A stretch of DNA of 64,000 nt from Acidimicrobiia bacterium (GCA_036558745.1 DATBEZ010000003.1:196352-260351); one strand, 5' to 3'; shown: positions 743 to 22,568, numbered from the stretch's first letter. Made by a program: numbers and translations. The notes: a model not told the origin generated them from the sequence alone.

Positions 743-3700
743 CTACGTCGGACGCGACCGGTCGGCGCGCTGGGGGATCCGTCCGTACCCACCGGCGTGC
801 GCGGACGCGACGGCAGCGTCTGTGAGCGAACGGATGCGCGCGTCATCGTCGCGATCGCGACGGAGCGCGAGCGCACGGCCCAGGTCGAGACGGGCCTGCG
901 CGCTCCAGTACGGCGCACCGATACGCTCCGACAGCTCGACCGCCTGCGAGAGGTGCTCGATCGCGAGGTCGGCCTCCCCCTGCGCAGTGGCGAGGTTCCC
1001 GATCCAATGGTGTCCCGTGCCGAAGACCGCGCCGCCGACTCCGAACACGACCACGTGGTCCGCGCACGGCATGAGCAGCTCGGTCAGCAGCTGGTGCAAC
1101 CGGGTGTCGCACGCGTCGGCCACCGCACCCGCGAAGAGCGCGACCGCCGCGAGCCAGAAGACGTCGCGCGGCAGGCGGCTGCCGTCACGACCGAGGACCC
1201 GGTGGACGATGCGCGCGGCCTCGTCGGCGCGTCCGGTCTCGGCCGACGCCACCGCGGCGAGCGCGGCGCCGGCCCGGTACGCGGGCATCTCGTCGGCGGC
1301 TTTGCGCAGCGTCGGATGCATCTCCGCGAGACGTCCCTGCTGGTAGCGCACGACGAAGCGCTGCAGCATGTGCGCGCCCGGAGCCTGCTGGAGCTCCTGA
1401 CCGCGCAGCTCCGCCCCGCGCGCGAGCTGCTCCCCCGCGACCAGGTCACCGTGCAGGGTGGCCTGGGTCGCCCGCAACGCGGCGGACCAGTACATGTCGT
1501 GCGGGCTCCGGAGCTCGGTCGCCACCTGCTCGTAACGGTCGAGCCCCGCGTCGAAGTCGTCGATCCGCGCGTTCTCGAGCAGGTCGTTGAGGTGCAGTCG
1601 GCAGGCTCGCAGGTGCAGATCCGAGCGCTCGTCGCCCGTCGTCAGGCCCACCACCGCCTCCGACAGCGCGAGCCGTTCGCTCGACGCCTCCGGTCGGTGG
1701 GTCAGCCATCGGTGCAGCGCGAGTCGGCCCGCGGCGAGCGCGGCATCGTCGCCGAGCTGGTGCCCGAGCTCGAGCGCCTCCTCTGCGATGCGGCCTTCAC
1801 GGTCGGGGTCGACGTAGTAGAGCGCGGCGGCCAGACCGTTCAGCACCCGCGCCCGCCGGCCGAGGTCGCGATCACCGAGCGCGTCGAGCGCCTCGTCGAG
1901 CAGCTCGAGCACGACCGCCTGCGACGCGAATCCCGAGCTCCACGGACCCGCCGCAGCGACGGCGACGTCGGCCAGCAACGCCGGATCGCCCGCGTCCCGC
2001 GCGAGACGAGCGGCGGTCGTGTACGCGTCGCGCGCCCGCGCGAGCTGGCCGTCTCCCTCGTACGCGAGCGCGAGGCCGTACCAGAGGCCCGGGACGTCGT
2101 CGCAGCAGTCGGCCCCGAAGTGGATCGCGTGCTCGAACCAGCGGGCGGCCTCCGCGAACGCGAACCGCTCCGCCGCGTCCCGCCCCGCGTGGGCCGAGTA
2201 CCGGGCGGCCTTCGGCACCAGGTCCGGCCGCGACGCGGCCGCGACGAAGTGGTGCGCGAGCGCTGCGGGCGCACGTCCCACGTGCTGCATGGTCTCGAGC
2301 GCCTCACCGACGTGTCGGTGCAGCTCCACGCGTCGCGAGTCGGGGATCTGCGCGTACACGGCGTTGCGGACCATCGCGTGCGGGAACTGGAACCGGTCGA
2401 GATGATCGCCGTGCTCGACCAGCAACCGGGCCGCGAGGCACTCCTCCAACGCGTCCATGAGCTCGTCGCCGTCGAACGCGCACGCGGGCGCGAGCAGGTC
2501 GAGCGAGACGTCCATGCCGGAGATGGCGGCGACGTGGATCACGTCGCGCCCCCGTTCGGACAGACGTCCCATGCGACGCTCGACCAACGCGCGGACACCG
2601 GCGGGAGCGATGGTCGTGATGGTGCGCTCCAGCTCGGCGGTGTCGTCGAAGCGGCCCGACTCCTCGTCGAGCGAGCGCAGCAGCTCGCGGATGAAGAGCG
2701 GGTTGCCCGCCGTCACCTCCTGCACCGTCGGCACGAGCTCGACGAGTGATTCGACCGCCTCGGGCGCGGCGACCGCGCGCAGCAGCGCGCGCACCTCGTT
2801 GTGCCCGAACCCGCTCAGGTGCATCCGCTCGGTGGCCGCCGGCGGTGCGAGCGCGTCGAGCAGCTCGGCTGCCTCGCCGCCGATCTCGTCGTCGCGGAAC
2901 GTCACCACGACCATGACCCCGACCAACCCGCGGTGGCGCACCAGGTGACGCAACACCGCGAACGTCGGGCGATCGGCCCAGTGCGCGTCGTCGACGACGA
3001 GGACGAGCGGGCCGGCACCGGCCGCGGCGACGAGCGTCGCGACCGCCTCGTAGAGGCGGTACCGCTCCGACGCCGCGCCGAGACCACCGCCGGCCGGACG
3101 TGGCGCGCCGGGCGCGGGCAGGTCCGGCAGCAGCAGCTTGAGATCCGCGGGCAGCGACGCGCGCCCGGCCTCGTCGAGCCGGTCGACCAACGCGTGCAGG
3201 ATCTCCACCACGGACTCGTACTCCACGACCGGATCCGGGCGGCACCGTCCGATCACGACGGGCACGCCGCGCGTGACGGCGCGGTCCGAGAACTCCTCGA
3301 GCAACGTCGTCTTGCCGATGCCCTCCTGTCCCCCGATGAGCACGAGCCGGCGCTCGCCCGAGACGACCGCGTCGAGCGTCGCCAGCAACGTCGCCGTCTC
3401 CACCCGGCGGTCGATGAAGCGCGACGGCGCACCGCGCCGGCGTGGCGCGCTCGCGGCGACCGCCGGTCGCGGCGGCACGAAATCGAGCCCGGGGCGCTGG
3501 AGGAGGACGTCCTCCTCCAGGCTGCGCAGCGTTGCCGACGGCTCCACGCCCAGCGCCTCGTCGAGACGGCGGGCGTGCTCGGTGTACGCGCGCAACGCCT
3601 CCGCCTGCCGCCCGCACCGGTACAGCGCGCGCATCAGCTGCGCGGTGAACCGTTCGTGCAGCGGGAACTCCTCGATCGCGCCGCGGAGCACGTCGATCAC

Positions 3701-4243
3701 GAGCGCGTGGTCTCCGAGCGTCAGCCGGGCCTCGACCAGCTCCTCGAACGCGCGCGCCCGCAGCTCCTCGAGCCGGGCCCGCTCGGCCCGGGCCGCGCTG
3801 AGGTCGGCGATGTCGGCGAAGGCGCGGCCGTGCCACAGGTCGAGCGCGTCGGTGAGCCGGGCCGCCGCCGTACCGAAATCGCCGTCCCCGCTCGCGCTGC
3901 ATCCGTAGAGCACGAGCCGCTCGAACCGCTGCGCGTCCAGCTCGTCGGGCTCGACCCGCAGCAGGTAGCCGTACGGGCCGGCCGGAAGACGCCCGCTCGG
4001 CGCGTTCGCGTCGCGCTCGGGCTCGAGCACCTGACGGAGCCGCCCGACGTGCACCCGCAGCGCGGTCGCCGCGCTGGCCGGGGGCTCGCCCTCCCACAGC
4101 TCCTCGGTCAGCTGTTCGGCCGGGACGGAGCGATTGGGTCGTAGTGCGAGGAGTGCGAGGAGCTGGCGCGGCTTGACCCCGCGAAGCAGGAACGGCATCC
4201 CGTCGTGGCGAATCTCCAACGGCCCGAGTACCCGGAGCTCCAC
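743..4243 (-). CDS. AfsR/SARP-family transcriptional regulator (winged-helix + BTAD + P-loop NTPase + TPR-like C-terminus)
   Basis: ORF 743..4279 (1178 aa). Motifs: LRVLGPLEIRHDG...KPRQLLALLAL...ALRVHVGRLRQVL (OmpR-type wHTH); LDAQRFERLV...ALDLWHGRAFAD (BTAD); Walker A GGQEGIGKTTLL; Walker B LVLVVDDAHWAD; long helical repeat tail. Start moved to GTG 4243 (VELRVLGPLEI) because GGAGG lies 6 nt upstream. GTG 4279 is the longest alternative. Confidence 0.9.
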   Translation of the reverse strand: MELRVLGPLEIRHDGMPFLLRGVKPRQLLALLALRPNRSVPAEQLTEELWEGEPPASAATALRVHVGRLRQVLEPERDANAPSGRLPAGPYGYLLRVEPDELDAQRFERLVLYGCSASGDGDFGTAAARLTDALDLWHGRAFADIADLSAARAERARLEELRARAFEELVEARLTLGDHALVIDVLRGAIEEFPLHERFTAQLMRALYRCGRQAEALRAYTEHARRLDEALGVEPSATLRSLEEDVLLQRPGLDFVPPRPAVAASAPRRRGAPSRFIDRRVETATLLATLDAVVSGERRLVLIGGQEGIGKTTLLEEFSDRAVTRGVPVVIGRCRPDPVVEYESVVEILHALVDRLDEAGRASLPADLKLLLPDLPAPGAPRPAGGGLGAASERYRLYEAVATLVAAAGAGPLVLVVDDAHWADRPTFAVLRHLVRHRGLVGVMVVVTFRDDEIGGEAAELLDALAPPAATERMHLSGFGHNEVRALLRAVAAPEAVESLVELVPTVQEVTAGNPLFIRELLRSLDEESGRFDDTAELERTITTIAPAGVRALVERRMGRLSERGRDVIHVAAISGMDVSLDLLAPACAFDGDELMDALEECLAARLLVEHGDHLDRFQFPHAMVRNAVYAQIPDSRRVELHRHVGEALETMQHVGRAPAALAHHFVAAASRPDLVPKAARYSAHAGRDAAERFAFAEAARWFEHAIHFGADCCDDVPGLWYGLALAYEGDGQLARARDAYTTAARLARDAGDPALLADVAVAAAGPWSSGFASQAVVLELLDEALDALGDRDLGRRARVLNGLAAALYYVDPDREGRIAEEALELGHQLGDDAALAAGRLALHRWLTHRPEASSERLALSEAVVGLTTGDERSDLHLRACRLHLNDLLENARIDDFDAGLDRYEQVATELRSPHDMYWSAALRATQATLHGDLVAGEQLARGAELRGQELQQAPGAHMLQRFVVRYQQGRLAEMHPTLRKAADEMPAYRAGAALAAVASAETGRADEAARIVHRVLGRDGSRLPRDVFWLAAVALFAGAVADACDTRLHQLLTELLMPCADHVVVFGVGGAVFGTGHHWIGNLATAQGEADLAIEHLSQAVELSERIGAPYWSAQARLDLGRALALRRDRDDDARIRSLTDAAVASAHAGGYGRIPQRADRSRPT

Positions 4244-4312
4244 CCGGAACCTCCGTCTTCGAGGCGAGGGATCGGGCACGTTATACCGAGGTCAGCGCAT
4301 CGCGCGGGACTG

Positions 4313-4346
4313 CGTTTACGGCCCGTTTACGCCTCTCCGGTACCAC
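4313..4346 (+). promoter_or_regulatory. SARP-box promoter cassette A: CGTTTAC-n4-CGTTTAC-n10-TACCAC
   Basis: Heptamers at 4313-4319 and 4324-4330 (11-bp register), then 10 nt, then TACCAC at 4341-4346. About 200 nt upstream of the 140-aa gene and divergent from the SARP gene. Confidence 0.6.
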
Positions 4347-4545
4347 AGGACACCTCGGGGAGCGCCCGACCCGAGCGGTACGTCCGTCGCGTGGAGGGCA
4401 GCAGCGACGTCGGCGTCTGCGGCGGCCTCGACGGGTCGGCACGGATTCCGGCGGGGGCACGCTGTCGCCTTCCGCGCGACGGGCTCCGCCGCGCGTCGCG
4501 CACCACGAGCCCTCACCACGAACCATCGGAACGAGAGAGAGGACG

Positions 4546-4968
4546 ATGCCCCACCAGGAAGACCGGCACCAGGACGGCCAGCACCAGGGCAGGCAGGGAA
4601 CGCTCGTCGGCGACCCACTCAACGGGTTGGTCGTCGCGGGCAACCAGGGTTTGAAGGATCCGAACTTCCGCTCGAGCCTCCGAGACATGCACGAGAACAA
4701 CGTGCCGCTCGTGCAGATCGTGGAGAACCTCGGGCTCGACGGCGACATGAGCCCACAGGTGCGCCGGATCCTCGAGGACCTCGACCCCGCCGTGGTCGAC
4801 GGCATCCGCCAGGCGATGATCGACATGCTCGACCGTCAGGATCAGACGATGCCGCTTGCGTGCACCGTCACGCAGCAACAGCTGGACGCGGGAACACCGG
4901 TCGTCGTACAGGTCGTCACCACCGACAACAAGCGGACGGTCCAGGCCACACCTTCGAGCGGAACGTGA
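4546..4968 (+). CDS. hypothetical 140-aa protein (His/Gln/Asp/Arg-rich N-terminus), first gene of the SARP-box A unit
   Basis: ORF 4546..4968. ATG is preceded by GAGAGAGAGG. GC3 is high and the body has non-shadow composition (NVPLVQIVENLGLDGDMSPQVRRILEDLDPAVVDGIRQAMIDMLDRQDQ). No family recognised. Confidence 0.7.
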   Translation: MPHQEDRHQDGQHQGRQGTLVGDPLNGLVVAGNQGLKDPNFRSSLRDMHENNVPLVQIVENLGLDGDMSPQVRRILEDLDPAVVDGIRQAMIDMLDRQDQTMPLACTVTQQQLDAGTPVVVQVVTTDNKRTVQATPSSGT

Positions 4969-4993
4969 GCGGGCCCGCCGTGGTGCTGATGCT

Positions 4994-5767
4994 GTGACCG
5001 ACGCGGCGCACGACGCGCCGCGTCTGTTCGACCACCTCGACGTCAACGCGCTCGACGCACCGTCGCGCGAGTGCGACCAGGGTGCGCGCGTCGCCGCGGA
5101 CGGTTGGGGGCGGTTGCTGAACGACCGACTCCACACCTGCGCGTTCGCGGCGGCGGCGCACCTGGAACGGTGCTGGGGGTCGCAGACCGGCGCGGGCGCG
5201 GACCTCGACGACGGCGTGATCCTGCGCGCGTACGAGCTCGCGAGCGGCTACGACCGTGCGGGGCCCGCGACGCGCGACGTGGGCGTCACCGAGCTCGACG
5301 CGCTCGAGCACTGGCGGGTCCACGGGATCGGCACGAGTCGCATCGACGCGTATGCGACCGTCGCGCCCGTCACGCGCGTCGAGGTCGCGACCGCGATCGA
5401 GCACTTCGGGGGCTGCTACGCGGCGCTGGCCCTCCCCGTGTCCGCGCAAGCGCAGGACGTGTGGCGGGTGCCCGAGCGTGGACCCGAGGGGTGGCGCGCG
5501 CCGGGGTCCTGGCTCGCGCACGCGGTCGCGCTCGTCGCCTACGACGAGACGACGGTGACCGCGGTCGCGTGGGGCGCCCGAACGGCCATGACGTGGGAGT
5601 TCCTCGCCACCTACGGTGCCGCGACCTACGCCGTGGTCAGCACGCGGAGCTGGTTCGTCGCCGGGATCCCACCCGGCCTGGGCCTCGACCTCGAGGGCAT
5701 CCGCCGTGCCCTCGACCGGCGTCGCGGTGCTGCCTCGTTTTACCGGTCGTTTACGGGAGTCCCGTAG
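4994..5767 (+). CDS. putative papain-like (clan CA) cysteine peptidase, no signal peptide
   Basis: In frame of ORF 4856..5767. Start set to GTG 4994, 26 nt after the upstream stop. Candidate catalytic layout: Cys in NDRLHTCAFAAAAHLE (cf. papain QGxCGSCWAF); His in GSWLAHAVALVAYDE (cf. HAVxxVGY); then TAVAWGARTAMTW (cf. NSWGxxWG). Confidence 0.6.
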   Translation: MTDAAHDAPRLFDHLDVNALDAPSRECDQGARVAADGWGRLLNDRLHTCAFAAAAHLERCWGSQTGAGADLDDGVILRAYELASGYDRAGPATRDVGVTELDALEHWRVHGIGTSRIDAYATVAPVTRVEVATAIEHFGGCYAALALPVSAQAQDVWRVPERGPEGWRAPGSWLAHAVALVAYDETTVTAVAWGARTAMTWEFLATYGAATYAVVSTRSWFVAGIPPGLGLDLEGIRRALDRRRGAASFYRSFTGVP

Positions 5768-5770
5768 AAC
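5736..5770 (+). promoter_or_regulatory. SARP-box promoter cassette B: CGTTTTAC-n4-CGTTTAC-n10-TAGAAC
   Basis: Repeats at 5736-5743 and 5748-5754 (TTTAC cores 11 bp apart), then 10 nt, then TAGAAC at 5765-5770. The hexamer contains the peptidase stop codon (5765-5767). Confidence 0.5.
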
Positions 5771-5900
5771 GGCCACATCGTCCGCCGGTGCGGTGCAGCG
5801 CGCAGGGGCAGGACCGGTGCAGGCCGGAGCACGGCAGGAGCTGGTCATCGGGCCGGCGGGACGAACCGCACACCCGCGCACCGTGTGGGTGGTGCACCGC

Positions 5901-5940
5901 AGGCGGCGTGCCGGCTCCCCCCATTCCCGGCACGCCGCCT
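5901..5940. terminator. bidirectional stem-loop between convergent peptidase and SRPBCC genes
   Basis: AGGCGGCGTGCCGG-(12 nt)-CCGGCACGCCGCCT, a perfect 14-bp stem. Confidence 0.6.
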
Positions 5941-5950
5941 GCACGCGCCG

Positions 5951-6418
5951 TCAGCTCGTCGCGGTGACGAGCTCCTCGATCCGGACCAGGGTCTGCTCCA
6001 TGTTGCGGCGGGTCTTGTCGGGCGTCGGTCCGAGGCGCAGCAGCGCGCGCTGCTTGTCCTGTGAGAGGTCCCAGCTCTCGCGGACGCGGGTGCCGCCGTC
6101 GACGGGCTCGAGCTCGTAGCGCCAGATGCGCCCGGCCGAGATCCGCCCGGGCCAGCCCGGCGGGCGGGCCTGCCACGCGATCCGGCGGTTGTCCTCGTAC
6201 TCCACCACCGTGTTGACCATCGAGTACGGGATGCCGAGCTTCATCGACATCCCGAACGTCGCGCCGAGCGAGAGCCGCTCCGGCGCGCCGGCCTTGGCCT
6301 GCTTCACGGTCCCGGACCCGTCGATGTCCGGGTGACGCGACGCGTCGGCGAGCAGGGCGAAGATCGCGTCCGGCGGCGCCGGGATGACCCGCTCCACGGT
6401 CACCACGTCACCTTTCAT
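5951..6418 (-). CDS. SRPBCC-family (polyketide cyclase/dehydrase-like, START-fold) ligand-binding protein
   Basis: ORF 5951..6418. MKGDVVTVERVIPAPPDAIFALLADASRHPDIDGSG...RIWRYELEPVDGGTRVRESWDLS is a typical SRPBCC pattern. ATG is preceded by GGGGGAGG. Confidence 0.85.
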   Translation of the reverse strand: MKGDVVTVERVIPAPPDAIFALLADASRHPDIDGSGTVKQAKAGAPERLSLGATFGMSMKLGIPYSMVNTVVEYEDNRRIAWQARPPGWPGRISAGRIWRYELEPVDGGTRVRESWDLSQDKQRALLRLGPTPDKTRRNMEQTLVRIEELVTATS

Positions 6419-6509
6419 CGAAGCCTCCCCCGTTCGAGTGTCCCCGCGGGCGAGACCCTACGTGGCAGAGACGCGAGCGGCGAGCCTGCGAGCGCGAGGA
6501 AGGACGCCG

Positions 6510-6830
6510 TCAGCGGTCCGGCCTGATGCCGGCGCGGACGAGCACCTCGGCCGGCACCCCGAACTCGCGCCACGTCGCGTACTCGATGCCGTGGGCGACC
6601 GCGTACGTCCGCGCGTAGGCGACGAACCCGTGCTCGAGTCGTCGCACCTCGCGGTCCTCGGCGGAGGGCGACCGCTCGGCCGCGCCCGCCTCGCCGCCCG
6701 AGAGCGTCCGCGCCCGGTGCACGGCGCGGGCGTCGAGCGCCTCCAGGTAGCCGGCGACCGCGCCTGTCGACCGGCACCCGGTGCTCCGTCCCACTCGACG
6801 GTCGACCGACCGTCCCCGCGTCGTCAGCAT
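6510..6830 (-). CDS. hypothetical protein, first gene of the SARP-box C unit; start uncertain
   Basis: ORF 6510..6908 (GTG start). GC3 is saturated only from about AVAGYLEALDARAVHR onward, so ATG 6830 or GTG 6794 are more likely starts than 6908. The C-terminal half (EDREVRRLEHGFVAYARTYAVAHGIEYATWREFGVPAEVLVRAGI) looks like a real protein. No family recognised. Confidence 0.5.
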   Translation of the reverse strand: MLTTRGRSVDRRVGRSTGCRSTGAVAGYLEALDARAVHRARTLSGGEAGAAERSPSAEDREVRRLEHGFVAYARTYAVAHGIEYATWREFGVPAEVLVRAGIRPDR

Positions 6831-6995
6831 CGGCCGCCACCCCCGTGCCTCGTCAATCGGTCGCAATGCGACGCATCCGCTGTCGGAACCGCGCTCGTGT
6901 CGCTCCACGTCGGCGTCCTCGGCAGACCCGGTCCGTTCGTGGGCGCGCCCGCAACGCGCCCCAGCCCAGTCGACGGTCCGACGGTCCCGGGCCGT

Positions 6996-7029
6996 GTTCT
7001 AGGAGGGAGGTGTAAAGGGCCCGTAAACG
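6996..7029 (-). promoter_or_regulatory. SARP-box promoter cassette C (minus strand): CGTTTAC-n4-CCTTTAC-n10-TAGAAC
   Basis: Plus-strand GTAAACG at 7023-7029 and GTAAAGG at 7012-7018 (11-bp register), with GTTCTA at 6996-7001. Points toward the 6510-6908 and SRPBCC genes. Confidence 0.6.
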
Positions 7030-22346: not shown

Positions 22347-22568
22347 CGCGGCACGGTAGTTCGCGGTTGCCTTCAGATCTTCCGGCGCCCGCCGATCTGT
22401 CGACGTCGACTTCGGTCACGAGTGCCAGCGCGAAGCCCCGGCTCGCTGGCCGGCAACCCTCCTCCACGGTGGGGTGCCCCGGGTGAGGACCAGGCCGGTT
22501 CGCGCGTCGCGGCCGGCAAGCGTGGGCTCCGACGACTCCGGGGTCCCGAGAGAGGCCCGAGGTGTGTC

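Follow-up and report, generated by a model that had tools for sequence, protein, structure and literature searches.

Three SARP-box-like cassettes and a candidate small RNA beside a large SARP gene of an Acidimicrobiia bacterium

In a 64,000-nucleotide stretch of DNA from an Acidimicrobiia bacterium (GCA_036558745.1, DATBEZ010000003.1:196352-260351; hereafter the window), three copies of a short cassette, each made of two direct repeats followed by a hexamer that begins with TA, lie within 2.8 kb of a gene for a 1166-aa regulator of the Streptomyces antibiotic regulatory protein (SARP) family. These three cassettes, which we call A, B and C, are real and far beyond chance. On the basis of their sequence, position and conservation, we consider it likely, with a probability of roughly 70%, that the adjacent SARP activates transcription from all three through predicted binding to the repeats. 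A broader proposal is more tentative, and we think it somewhat likelier to fail than to hold: that this orphan AAA_16/TPR-like large SARP, restricted to a rare lineage of uncultured Acidimicrobiia, has direct control over a self-contained module of three promoters. The outputs of the module would be two lineage-restricted proteins, one of 140 aa and one Cys/His hydrolase-like, a 106-aa protein from a widespread but uncharacterized actinobacterial family, and a new structured small RNA, transcribed from a promoter inside coding sequence, with an invariant C-rich loop that would act on the G-rich ribosome-binding sites of the module.

To our knowledge, SARPs have not been studied in the class Acidimicrobiia. 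A total of 3,853 AfsR-like regulators have been reported in Actinomycetota, of which 58% lie outside biosynthetic clusters and have targets that are stated to be unknown (preprint 10.64898/2026.09.02.748808). The mechanism that we propose is itself the known SARP-box mechanism; what is new is that an ‘ectopic’ large SARP of Acidimicrobiia comes with a complete and conserved set of three sites, orphan targets and a probable RNA output. If the broader proposal is true, it would provide the first SARP-activated regulatory RNA, and one of the many ‘ectopic’ AfsR-like regulators would have a predicted regulon that is complete. Should cassette B prove to be a promoter, SARPs would be able to drive a regulatory RNA from within coding sequence, a situation that we did not find described in a literature search. 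The locus thus offers a clean, conservation-backed prediction of both the binding site and the target set of an orphan regulator. The 34-bp cassettes are short enough for direct testing, and the uncultured host limits the immediate impact.

Three cassettes of fixed geometry and the adjacent regulator

The cassettes and the regulator gene are located in the window as follows.

4313-4346, plus strand: cassette A, CGTTTAC (4313-4319) ggcc CGTTTAC (4324-4330) gcctctccgg TACCAC (4341-4346); upstream 11-bp repeat 4313-4323, downstream 11-bp repeat 4324-4334, then a 6-bp gap and the hexamer TACCAC; predicted transcription start at about 4353
5736-5770, plus strand: cassette B, CGTTTTAC (5736-5743) cggt CGTTTAC (5748-5754) gggagtcccg TAGAAC (5765-5770); upstream 11-bp repeat GTTTTACCGGT 5737-5747, downstream 11-bp repeat 5748-5758; predicted transcription start at about 5777
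7029-6996, minus strand: cassette C, CGTTTAC (7029-7023) gggc CCTTTAC (7018-7012) acctccctcc TAGAAC (7001-6996); upstream 11-bp repeat 7029-7019, downstream 11-bp repeat 7018-7008 (CCTTTAC); predicted transcription start at about 6989
743-4243, minus strand: SARP gene, 1166 aa, with an OmpR-type winged helix-turn-helix (wHTH) domain, BTAD, an AAA_16 STAND-type ATPase and a TPR-like C terminus

A preliminary description of this DNA had claimed three cassettes with one geometry at these positions, and the sequence bears it out: all three consist of a 22-bp box, then 6 bp, then the hexamer, with the box starting 28 nt ahead of the hexamer start. In every orthologous copy, as in A, B and C themselves, the two TTTAC cores are phased at 11 nt. 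The repeated unit had been given as a CGTTTAC heptamer in 11-bp register. This register holds for the TTTAC core but not for the CG, because cassette B reads GTTTTACCGGT in strict 11-nt register; the phased unit in all three cassettes is therefore TTTAC. When the repeat is read as TTTACNN, the distance of 8 bp to the hexamer that had been calculated is arithmetically correct.

Searching the 64 kb for CGTTTACN4CGTTTAC with up to two mismatches gave three matches against 0.01 expected, and 0 of 100 shuffled sequences reached three. The CGTTTAC words had also been said to stand out from GC-rich DNA, and they do: the window (72% G+C) contains five GTTTAC hexamers in all, and four of them fall inside the three cassettes. 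We then scanned the window with a position weight matrix made from 13 distinct cassette sequences, taken from the window and from the related loci described below. The three cassettes scored 52, 50 and 46 bits and the next best site scored -0.5, so that the 64-kb window holds no site resembling the cassettes besides A, B and C.

Judged by its domains, the protein encoded directly beside cassette A is a genuine SARP (wHTH and BTAD), as the preliminary description had it. Pfam matches were found for BTAD (5.6e-42), Trans_reg_C (3.3e-10) and AAA_16 (2.3e-24), and the C terminus matched TPR_12, TPR_8, TPR_2 and TPR_1 with E values of 1e-5 to 5e-4, all under the Pfam gathering scores. The architecture is thus SARP plus AAA_16 plus a TPR-like part, with no LuxR domain. 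The N-terminal 320 residues align to the structures of AfsR and EmbR (E about 1e-29), and the equivalents of AfsR W74, P79, R87, R92 and R94 are retained in this alignment. The ATPase region (residues 280-715, approximately) is of the AAA_16/AAA_22 type and also resembles the ATPase part of a TOMM kinase/cyclase fusion model (TIGR03903, 2.4e-38). We rejected the idea that the protein is an AfsR orthologue: the NCBIfam AfsR equivalog model gave 139 bits, against a cut-off of 1430, and covered residues 14-327 only; the ATPase is AAA_16 instead of NB-ARC; and a search of residues 280-715 against the PDB matched no AfsR chain. Among 185,579 species genomes the best match to the SARP had just 34% identity, with no close relative, and no orthologous system was found in cultured organisms. 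None of 80 loci of SARP relatives carried TTTAC-type boxes. The pattern GTTYA-N6-GTTYA occurred twice in those 80 loci, both times as PHO/afs-like sites in Streptomyces, far from the match.

The cassettes closely resemble characterized SARP sites. SARP targets are direct repeats 11 or 22 bp apart, with the 3' repeat 8 bp from the -10 element (PMC10936776), and heptamers spaced by 4 nt are the typical pattern (PMC8780764). The afs box of AfsR is 22 bp long, with two 11-bp repeats at -40 to -19 and the -10 element at -12 to -7; AfsR contacts the first 8 bp of each repeat, R92 reading the first T of GTT and T88 reading position 5 (PMC10936776). The cassettes match this geometry exactly, provided that the hexamer is the -10 element. 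The AfsR motif derived from 20 afsS promoters is YGTTYAKSD (PMC10832544). CGTTTA fits its core, YGTTYA, and is present in four of the window's six repeats; the other two, GTTTTA (B, upstream, in register) and CCTTTA (C, downstream), each deviate at one or two bases.

The likeness to AfsR and afsS of Streptomyces coelicolor goes beyond the box. Both systems have a large SARP that is not part of a biosynthetic cluster and has an ATPase and a repeat-type sensor, which in the window is TPR-like by sub-threshold matches; a site that spans 22 bp and comprises two 11-bp repeats with the core YGTTYA, placed at -40 to -19 over a poor -35 region, positions that are predicted in the window; a 20-bp gap to a weak -10 element, for which the hexamer is the candidate here; and, beside the regulator gene, a gene for a small orphan protein, which is a direct target of AfsR and a predicted one here. 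The set of direct targets is very small for AfsR, namely afsS and wblH (2026 preprint), and is predicted to be so here. They differ in that the window regulator, from an Acidimicrobiia host, is no AfsR orthologue and has an AAA_16-type rather than an NB-ARC ATPase, that there are three boxes here instead of one, that one of the three faces a candidate non-coding RNA, that the targets here are unrelated to afsS and that the hexamer here ends in C. The boxes of cluster-situated small SARPs are of the TCGAG type and control antibiotic biosynthesis genes. ActII-ORF4, DnrI and RedD resemble the present system in their heptamer repeats with 4-nt spacing (an 11-bp period), in a 3' repeat lying 8 bp away from the -10 element, as well as in several target promoters near the regulator gene, whereas the core here is TTTAC and the neighbours here are ordinary metabolic genes.

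PHO boxes, the sites of PhoP at genes of the phosphate regulon, are 11-nt direct repeats with a GTTCA core. In Streptomyces these boxes, with their GTTCA-like core, resemble the cassettes in having 11-nt repeat units over the -35 region, and PhoP competes with AfsR at afsS. The cassettes might thus be bound by another OmpR/PhoB-type winged-helix regulator encoded elsewhere, PhoP-like for example, with the adjacency of the SARP gene being coincidental or reflecting competition of the kind found at afsS. There, the sites of AfsR and PhoP overlap and both have a GTTYA core (PMC10832544). The phasing of repeats does not by itself identify the binding protein, and two features of the window depart from AfsR: the equivalent of T88 is Val in the SARP, and the cassettes have C where the AfsR motif has K. 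We nevertheless regard a different binding protein as unlikely. All three sites in the 64 kb lie close to the SARP gene and none elsewhere, the sites accompany this gene in every related contig, and the core is TTTAC in 13 of 13 distinct cassettes and never the PHO-box TTCAC. Nor are the flanking genes related to phosphate.

Conservation of the cassettes in related loci

To follow the cassettes beyond the window, we used related metagenomic loci found through homologues of the small proteins, namely contigs L001-L018 and L100-L105. Proteins of syntenic loci are 62-85% identical. The common gene order is SARP (minus strand), 140-aa gene (plus), 257-aa gene (plus), SRPBCC gene (minus), 106-aa gene (minus) and oxidoreductase gene (plus), and the first five of these occur together in every contig of sufficient length. 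The cassettes travel with the SARP gene in all related contigs. Cassette A was found in every contig that spans the intergenic region between the SARP and 140-aa genes (L001-L004 and L006-L011), with ggcc, gtca, ggcg or gcca as spacer and TACCAC, TACGAC or TAGCAC as hexamer. Cassette B is kept in L006, L008, L009-L011, L013 and L014. Cassette C is kept in L012, in L015, L016 and L017, where the hexamer is TACAAC, and in L018, which has CGTTTAC as its second repeat and TAGAAA as its hexamer. The preliminary description had pointed to syntenic loci as a place to look for conservation, and all three cassettes are indeed retained there. Across the 13 distinct cassettes, the TTTAC of both repeats, the C ahead of the second repeat and the T1, A2 and A5 of the hexamer are invariant, and the 4-nt spacers and the 10-nt gap drift freely. 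Each cassette points into a conserved downstream feature.

Cassette B is the most informative copy, as it lies within a gene. It supplies the last 11 codons of the 257-aa gene (ASFYRSFTGVP*), and the TAG of its hexamer is the stop codon. In L008 a different reading frame runs through this DNA and yields an unrelated C terminus, and the motif is kept; the 45 nt preceding cassette B are barely conserved between loci. Selection therefore acts on the DNA motif of B and not on the protein, and from these alignments we take the retention of B across frames to be the strongest single argument for selection on DNA. These data also bear on the possibility that the similarity of the cassettes is a by-product of chance AT-rich words, of coding constraint on the C terminus of the 257-aa protein or of mobile-repeat remnants. 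The overlap of B with codons would be expected under coding constraint. However, A and C are intergenic, B persists in a different frame in L008, the number of matches far exceeds the chance expectation of 0.01, and the copies have neither flanking similarity nor repeat-element features. Chance and coding constraint are excluded, and the by-product explanation as a whole is effectively refuted.

We propose that the cassettes are afs-box-type cis-acting sites of the SARP encoded at 743-4243, and that each would be the central part of a promoter that depends on an activator. On the model of the AfsR-afsS initiation complex, two SARP domains would sit side by side on the two 11-bp repeats at about -40 to -19, substituting for a functional -35 contact, and the bound SARP dimer would recruit RNA polymerase to the weak hexamer TA[C/G]NAC. 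Presumably, the AAA_16 ATPase together with the TPR-like sensor part would control the regulator's activity. The transcript from cassette A would then begin with a long leader that is structured, followed by the orphan 140-aa gene and the gene for the 257-aa Cys/His protein. From a promoter in the last codons of this last gene, cassette B would produce a structured RNA of about 170 nt, ending at a strong hairpin that would also separate the RNA from the convergent SRPBCC gene. Cassette C would drive the 106-aa gene with its leader, and transcription might continue into the SRPBCC gene. In this scheme we infer the binding of the SARP, the transcription start sites, the ends of the RNA and the functions of the products.

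The hexamer and the candidate RNA region downstream of cassette B

The hexamers seen in the window and in the related loci are TACCAC, TAGAAC, TAGCAC, TACGAC, TACAAC and TAGAAA, giving the pattern TA[C/G]NA. The preliminary description had interpreted TAGAAC as a near-consensus -10 element. Conservation of the hexamer at a fixed position agrees with this, whereas the canonical final T is absent. The invariance of the hexamer and its fixed distance from the repeats argue that it is functional, and it could be a poor -10 element that makes the promoter dependent on an activator. A comparison of TA...T with TA..AC upstream of the other genes of the window gave too few sites to gauge the -10 preference of the host.

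On the side of cassette B, we found the following features.

5777-5945, plus strand: candidate non-coding RNA of about 170 nt, with conserved structure, downstream of cassette B
5778-5865, plus strand: multi-helix domain of the RNA, predicted by RNAalifold
5868-5895, plus strand: second hairpin of the RNA, predicted by RNAalifold
5899-5942, plus strand: terminator-like 16-bp hairpin of the RNA, with the invariant C-rich loop CUCCCCCCAUUC (5915-5926)

There is no gene downstream of cassette B; about 170 nt of non-coding DNA follows. The locus had been described as a compact SARP regulon of four genes outside any antibiotic cluster. We likewise found no biosynthetic cluster among the neighbouring genes of the window, but the regulon is not simply four genes, because cassette B faces a candidate structured non-coding RNA. 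DNA identity between lineages is 79-85% in the RNA region, compared with 72-77% in the flanking coding sequences, and one 75-nt stretch is almost invariant. RNAalifold gave the candidate RNA an energy of -104 kcal/mol, with 96% of cells paired and four compensatory pairs, a level reached by 2 of 500 shuffles. The folding z-score of the region was -3.3 for the plus strand and -0.5 for the minus strand, and these scores, together with invariant G-U pairs, favour an RNA on the plus strand.

We rejected a small open reading frame in this region, as the conserved segments stand in different relative frames in different loci; one-base insertions and deletions shift these frames between lineages, which argues that the region is not coding. 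A search of the candidate RNA against Rfam, permissive thresholds included, gave no family and only generic hairpin noise. The 6C/B11 small RNAs of actinobacteria, which have a C-rich loop in common with the candidate, are a lead only: in a 200-nt search the 6C family did not match even at E<=10, and just the C-rich loop is shared. An exact search for the loop region GCCGGCTCCCCCCATTCCCGGC gave 0 matches in genome contigs and one in metagenome contigs, a near-duplicate of L013, so the candidate RNA is as rare as the orphan proteins. We also considered whether the three transcripts downstream of the cassettes are paralogous leaders and rejected this, since their mutual similarity is no more than chance.

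Small RNAs of the MicL/DapZ type have a promoter within the upstream coding sequence and end at the terminator hairpin of the operon. The candidate RNA of cassette B would be like this type in both respects, its promoter lying within the 3' part of a coding sequence and its end falling at a terminator hairpin, and this likeness too is a lead only. We judge the odds to be roughly even that cassette B is the internal promoter of a small RNA of the 3' untranslated region (UTR) type. The C-rich loop, which contains six consecutive Cs, could pair with the G-rich ribosome-binding sites GGGGGAGG of the SRPBCC gene and GGGGGUGG of the 106-aa gene. When RNA-RNA duplexes of the candidate RNA with the leaders of A, C, the SARP gene and the SRPBCC gene were predicted, their scores did not exceed those of shuffles; full-length GC-rich duplexes swamp the signal in this prediction.

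Two further observations concern this RNA region. At about position 7850 of L009, 11 nt (GCACGGCAGGA) are missing inside the candidate RNA, between two GGAGC repeats, and several contigs of the same species (among L009-L011 and L100-L105) end inside the RNA region or just next to it, which points to variation among strains or to breaks in the assembly at the strong hairpin.

The hexamer and the RNA region together bear on a second alternative, in which the repeats are binding sites of the SARP or of another protein but the hexamer does not serve as a -10 element. On this view the cassettes would be operators or autoregulatory or titration sites, or would serve a different sigma factor or start; cassette B would lack promoter activity, and the RNA would be the shared 3' UTR and terminator of convergent operons. 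The missing T at -7 and the absence of a sigma-70-type prediction fit this possibility, as do the strong hairpin between convergent genes and the loss of B that one lineage, L012, tolerates. We think it improbable. At all three sites and in all lineages the hexamer keeps its position and its TA..A without change, which is unexpected for a spacer, and the spacing reproduces that of the afsS promoter exactly. Conservation is higher in the RNA region, including loops for which a terminator has no need, than in the neighbouring coding sequence, and the G-U pairs and folding z-scores point to the plus strand.

Several points weigh against activation of all three cassettes by the adjacent SARP, in addition to the Val and the C that depart from AfsR. 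The last base of the hexamer is C in 12 of 13 sequences and never T. It thus fails to match TANNNT, the -10 consensus reported for Streptomyces (PMC8780764); the host here is a member of Acidimicrobiia and not a streptomycete. Alternative registers of the hexamer were considered at the cassettes and none gives a final T, and a generic sigma-70 scan predicted no promoter. The predicted leaders of A and C, at 160-190 nt, are long. Because the whole intergenic region of A is conserved, its footprint is not specific to the box. In L012 (1044-1080) cassette B is degraded to CGTGTAC plus GAGAAC and the stop codon of the 257-aa gene is lost, so that the gene call reads through to 383 aa and runs into the SRPBCC gene; B may therefore be dispensable. 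The support for the RNA structure is drawn from only six sequences. Finally, the host is uncultured, and SARP binding and the start sites are predicted only.

Genes of the module and its surroundings

Downstream of cassette A are the following features.

4353-4545, plus strand: 5' leader of the 140-aa gene, about 190 nt, conserved, with a 5' hairpin and an 18-bp long-range helix
4546-4968, plus strand: orphan 140-aa gene, the first gene downstream of cassette A
4994-5767, plus strand: orphan 257-aa gene, with invariant Cys49 (TCAF) and His176 (HAVALVAYD)

The leader had an RNAalifold energy of -73 kcal/mol and five pairs with compensatory change. It could be a regulatory leader or a riboswitch-like element; against Rfam, also at permissive thresholds, it gave generic hairpin noise only. 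We also noted that this leader is as conserved as coding sequence. Only 8 homologue clusters of the 140-aa protein, all metagenomic, were found among 5.8 billion proteins. Its AlphaFold2 (AF2) model had a predicted local distance difference test (pLDDT) score of 63, and a Foldseek search of this model against the PDB returned noise only, with no fold match.

The 257-aa protein has 7 homologue clusters among the same 5.8 billion proteins. Cys49 and His176 are invariant in five homologues, and the His motif HAVALVAYD resembles HAVAAVGYG of papain. The preliminary description had cassette A facing the 140-aa gene and a papain-like peptidase. Both genes are indeed downstream of A, but the papain-like label finds no profile or fold support: at E<=10 the protein matched nothing in Pfam but a noise-level DUF, no PDB profile matched, an hhalign comparison with papain aligned the His motif alone (22 columns, probability 1%), and the AF2 model was unusable (pLDDT 34). 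It is possible, going by the two invariant residues, that the protein is a cysteine hydrolase. Scans of the 140-aa, 257-aa and 106-aa proteins with Pfam, NCBIfam and PADLOC found no family, and a reading of these orphan proteins as a defence system gained no support from these empty scans.

Upstream of the SARP gene and on the side of cassette C, we found the following features.

4274-4295, minus strand: block GGGCACGTTATACCGAGGTCAG, which six divergent loci share without any change; it holds TATAAC (4285-4280) at a distance of 42 nt upstream of the SARP start
6831-6989, minus strand: 5' leader of the 106-aa gene, about 160 nt, conserved, ending in the G-rich ribosome-binding site GGGGGUGG
6510-6830, minus strand: 106-aa gene, the first gene downstream of cassette C, with its start at ATG 6830 rather than GTG 6908
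5951-6418, minus strand: SRPBCC (Polyketide_cyc2/AHSA1) gene, 155 aa, Pfam 5.1e-12
6460-6455, minus strand: TAGGGT within GTAGGGTCTCG, a canonical TANNNT 42 nt upstream of the SRPBCC ATG

The TATAAC in the GGGCACGTTATACCGAGGTCAG block may be the -10 element of the SARP gene's own promoter, in which case this candidate hexamer would again end in C. For the 106-aa gene, ATG 6830 is most likely the start because a stop codon in L015 closes the upstream extension and because the homologues are 102-110 aa long. The preliminary description had cassette C facing a hypothetical gene at 6510-6908 and the SRPBCC gene. Cassette C does point at the 106-aa gene, but with the start at 6830, and the SRPBCC gene may have a promoter of its own, because GTAGGGTCTCG is kept in the window, L006 and L012 although L006 has a different upstream gene. 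Among the 5.8 billion proteins, the 106-aa protein has 7-8 homologue clusters, nearly all metagenomic. Its C-terminal 45 residues (GFVxxARxYAxxHGIEYATWREFGVPAEVLxRAGI) recur in 261 cluster representatives of small, actinobacterial-looking proteins, many of which share an N-terminal AYLEAL motif; this C-terminal domain has no Pfam or NCBIfam family. In two more divergent lineages, an extra AHSA1/SRPBCC-like gene lies between the 106-aa gene and the 155-aa SRPBCC gene (L015 2566-3177; L018 1260-1610; L006 2790-3011), and the window is without it.

To the right of the module are genes for an Old Yellow Enzyme-type oxidoreductase, MOSC, F420H2-dependent quinone reductase, TauD, PAS-LuxR, ApbE, CYTH-CHAD, APH, acyl-CoA synthetase and SDR proteins. 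The sole Rfam family at gathering score in the window is an ordinary SAM-IV riboswitch at 22414-22528 on the plus strand (RF00634, 101.8 bits).

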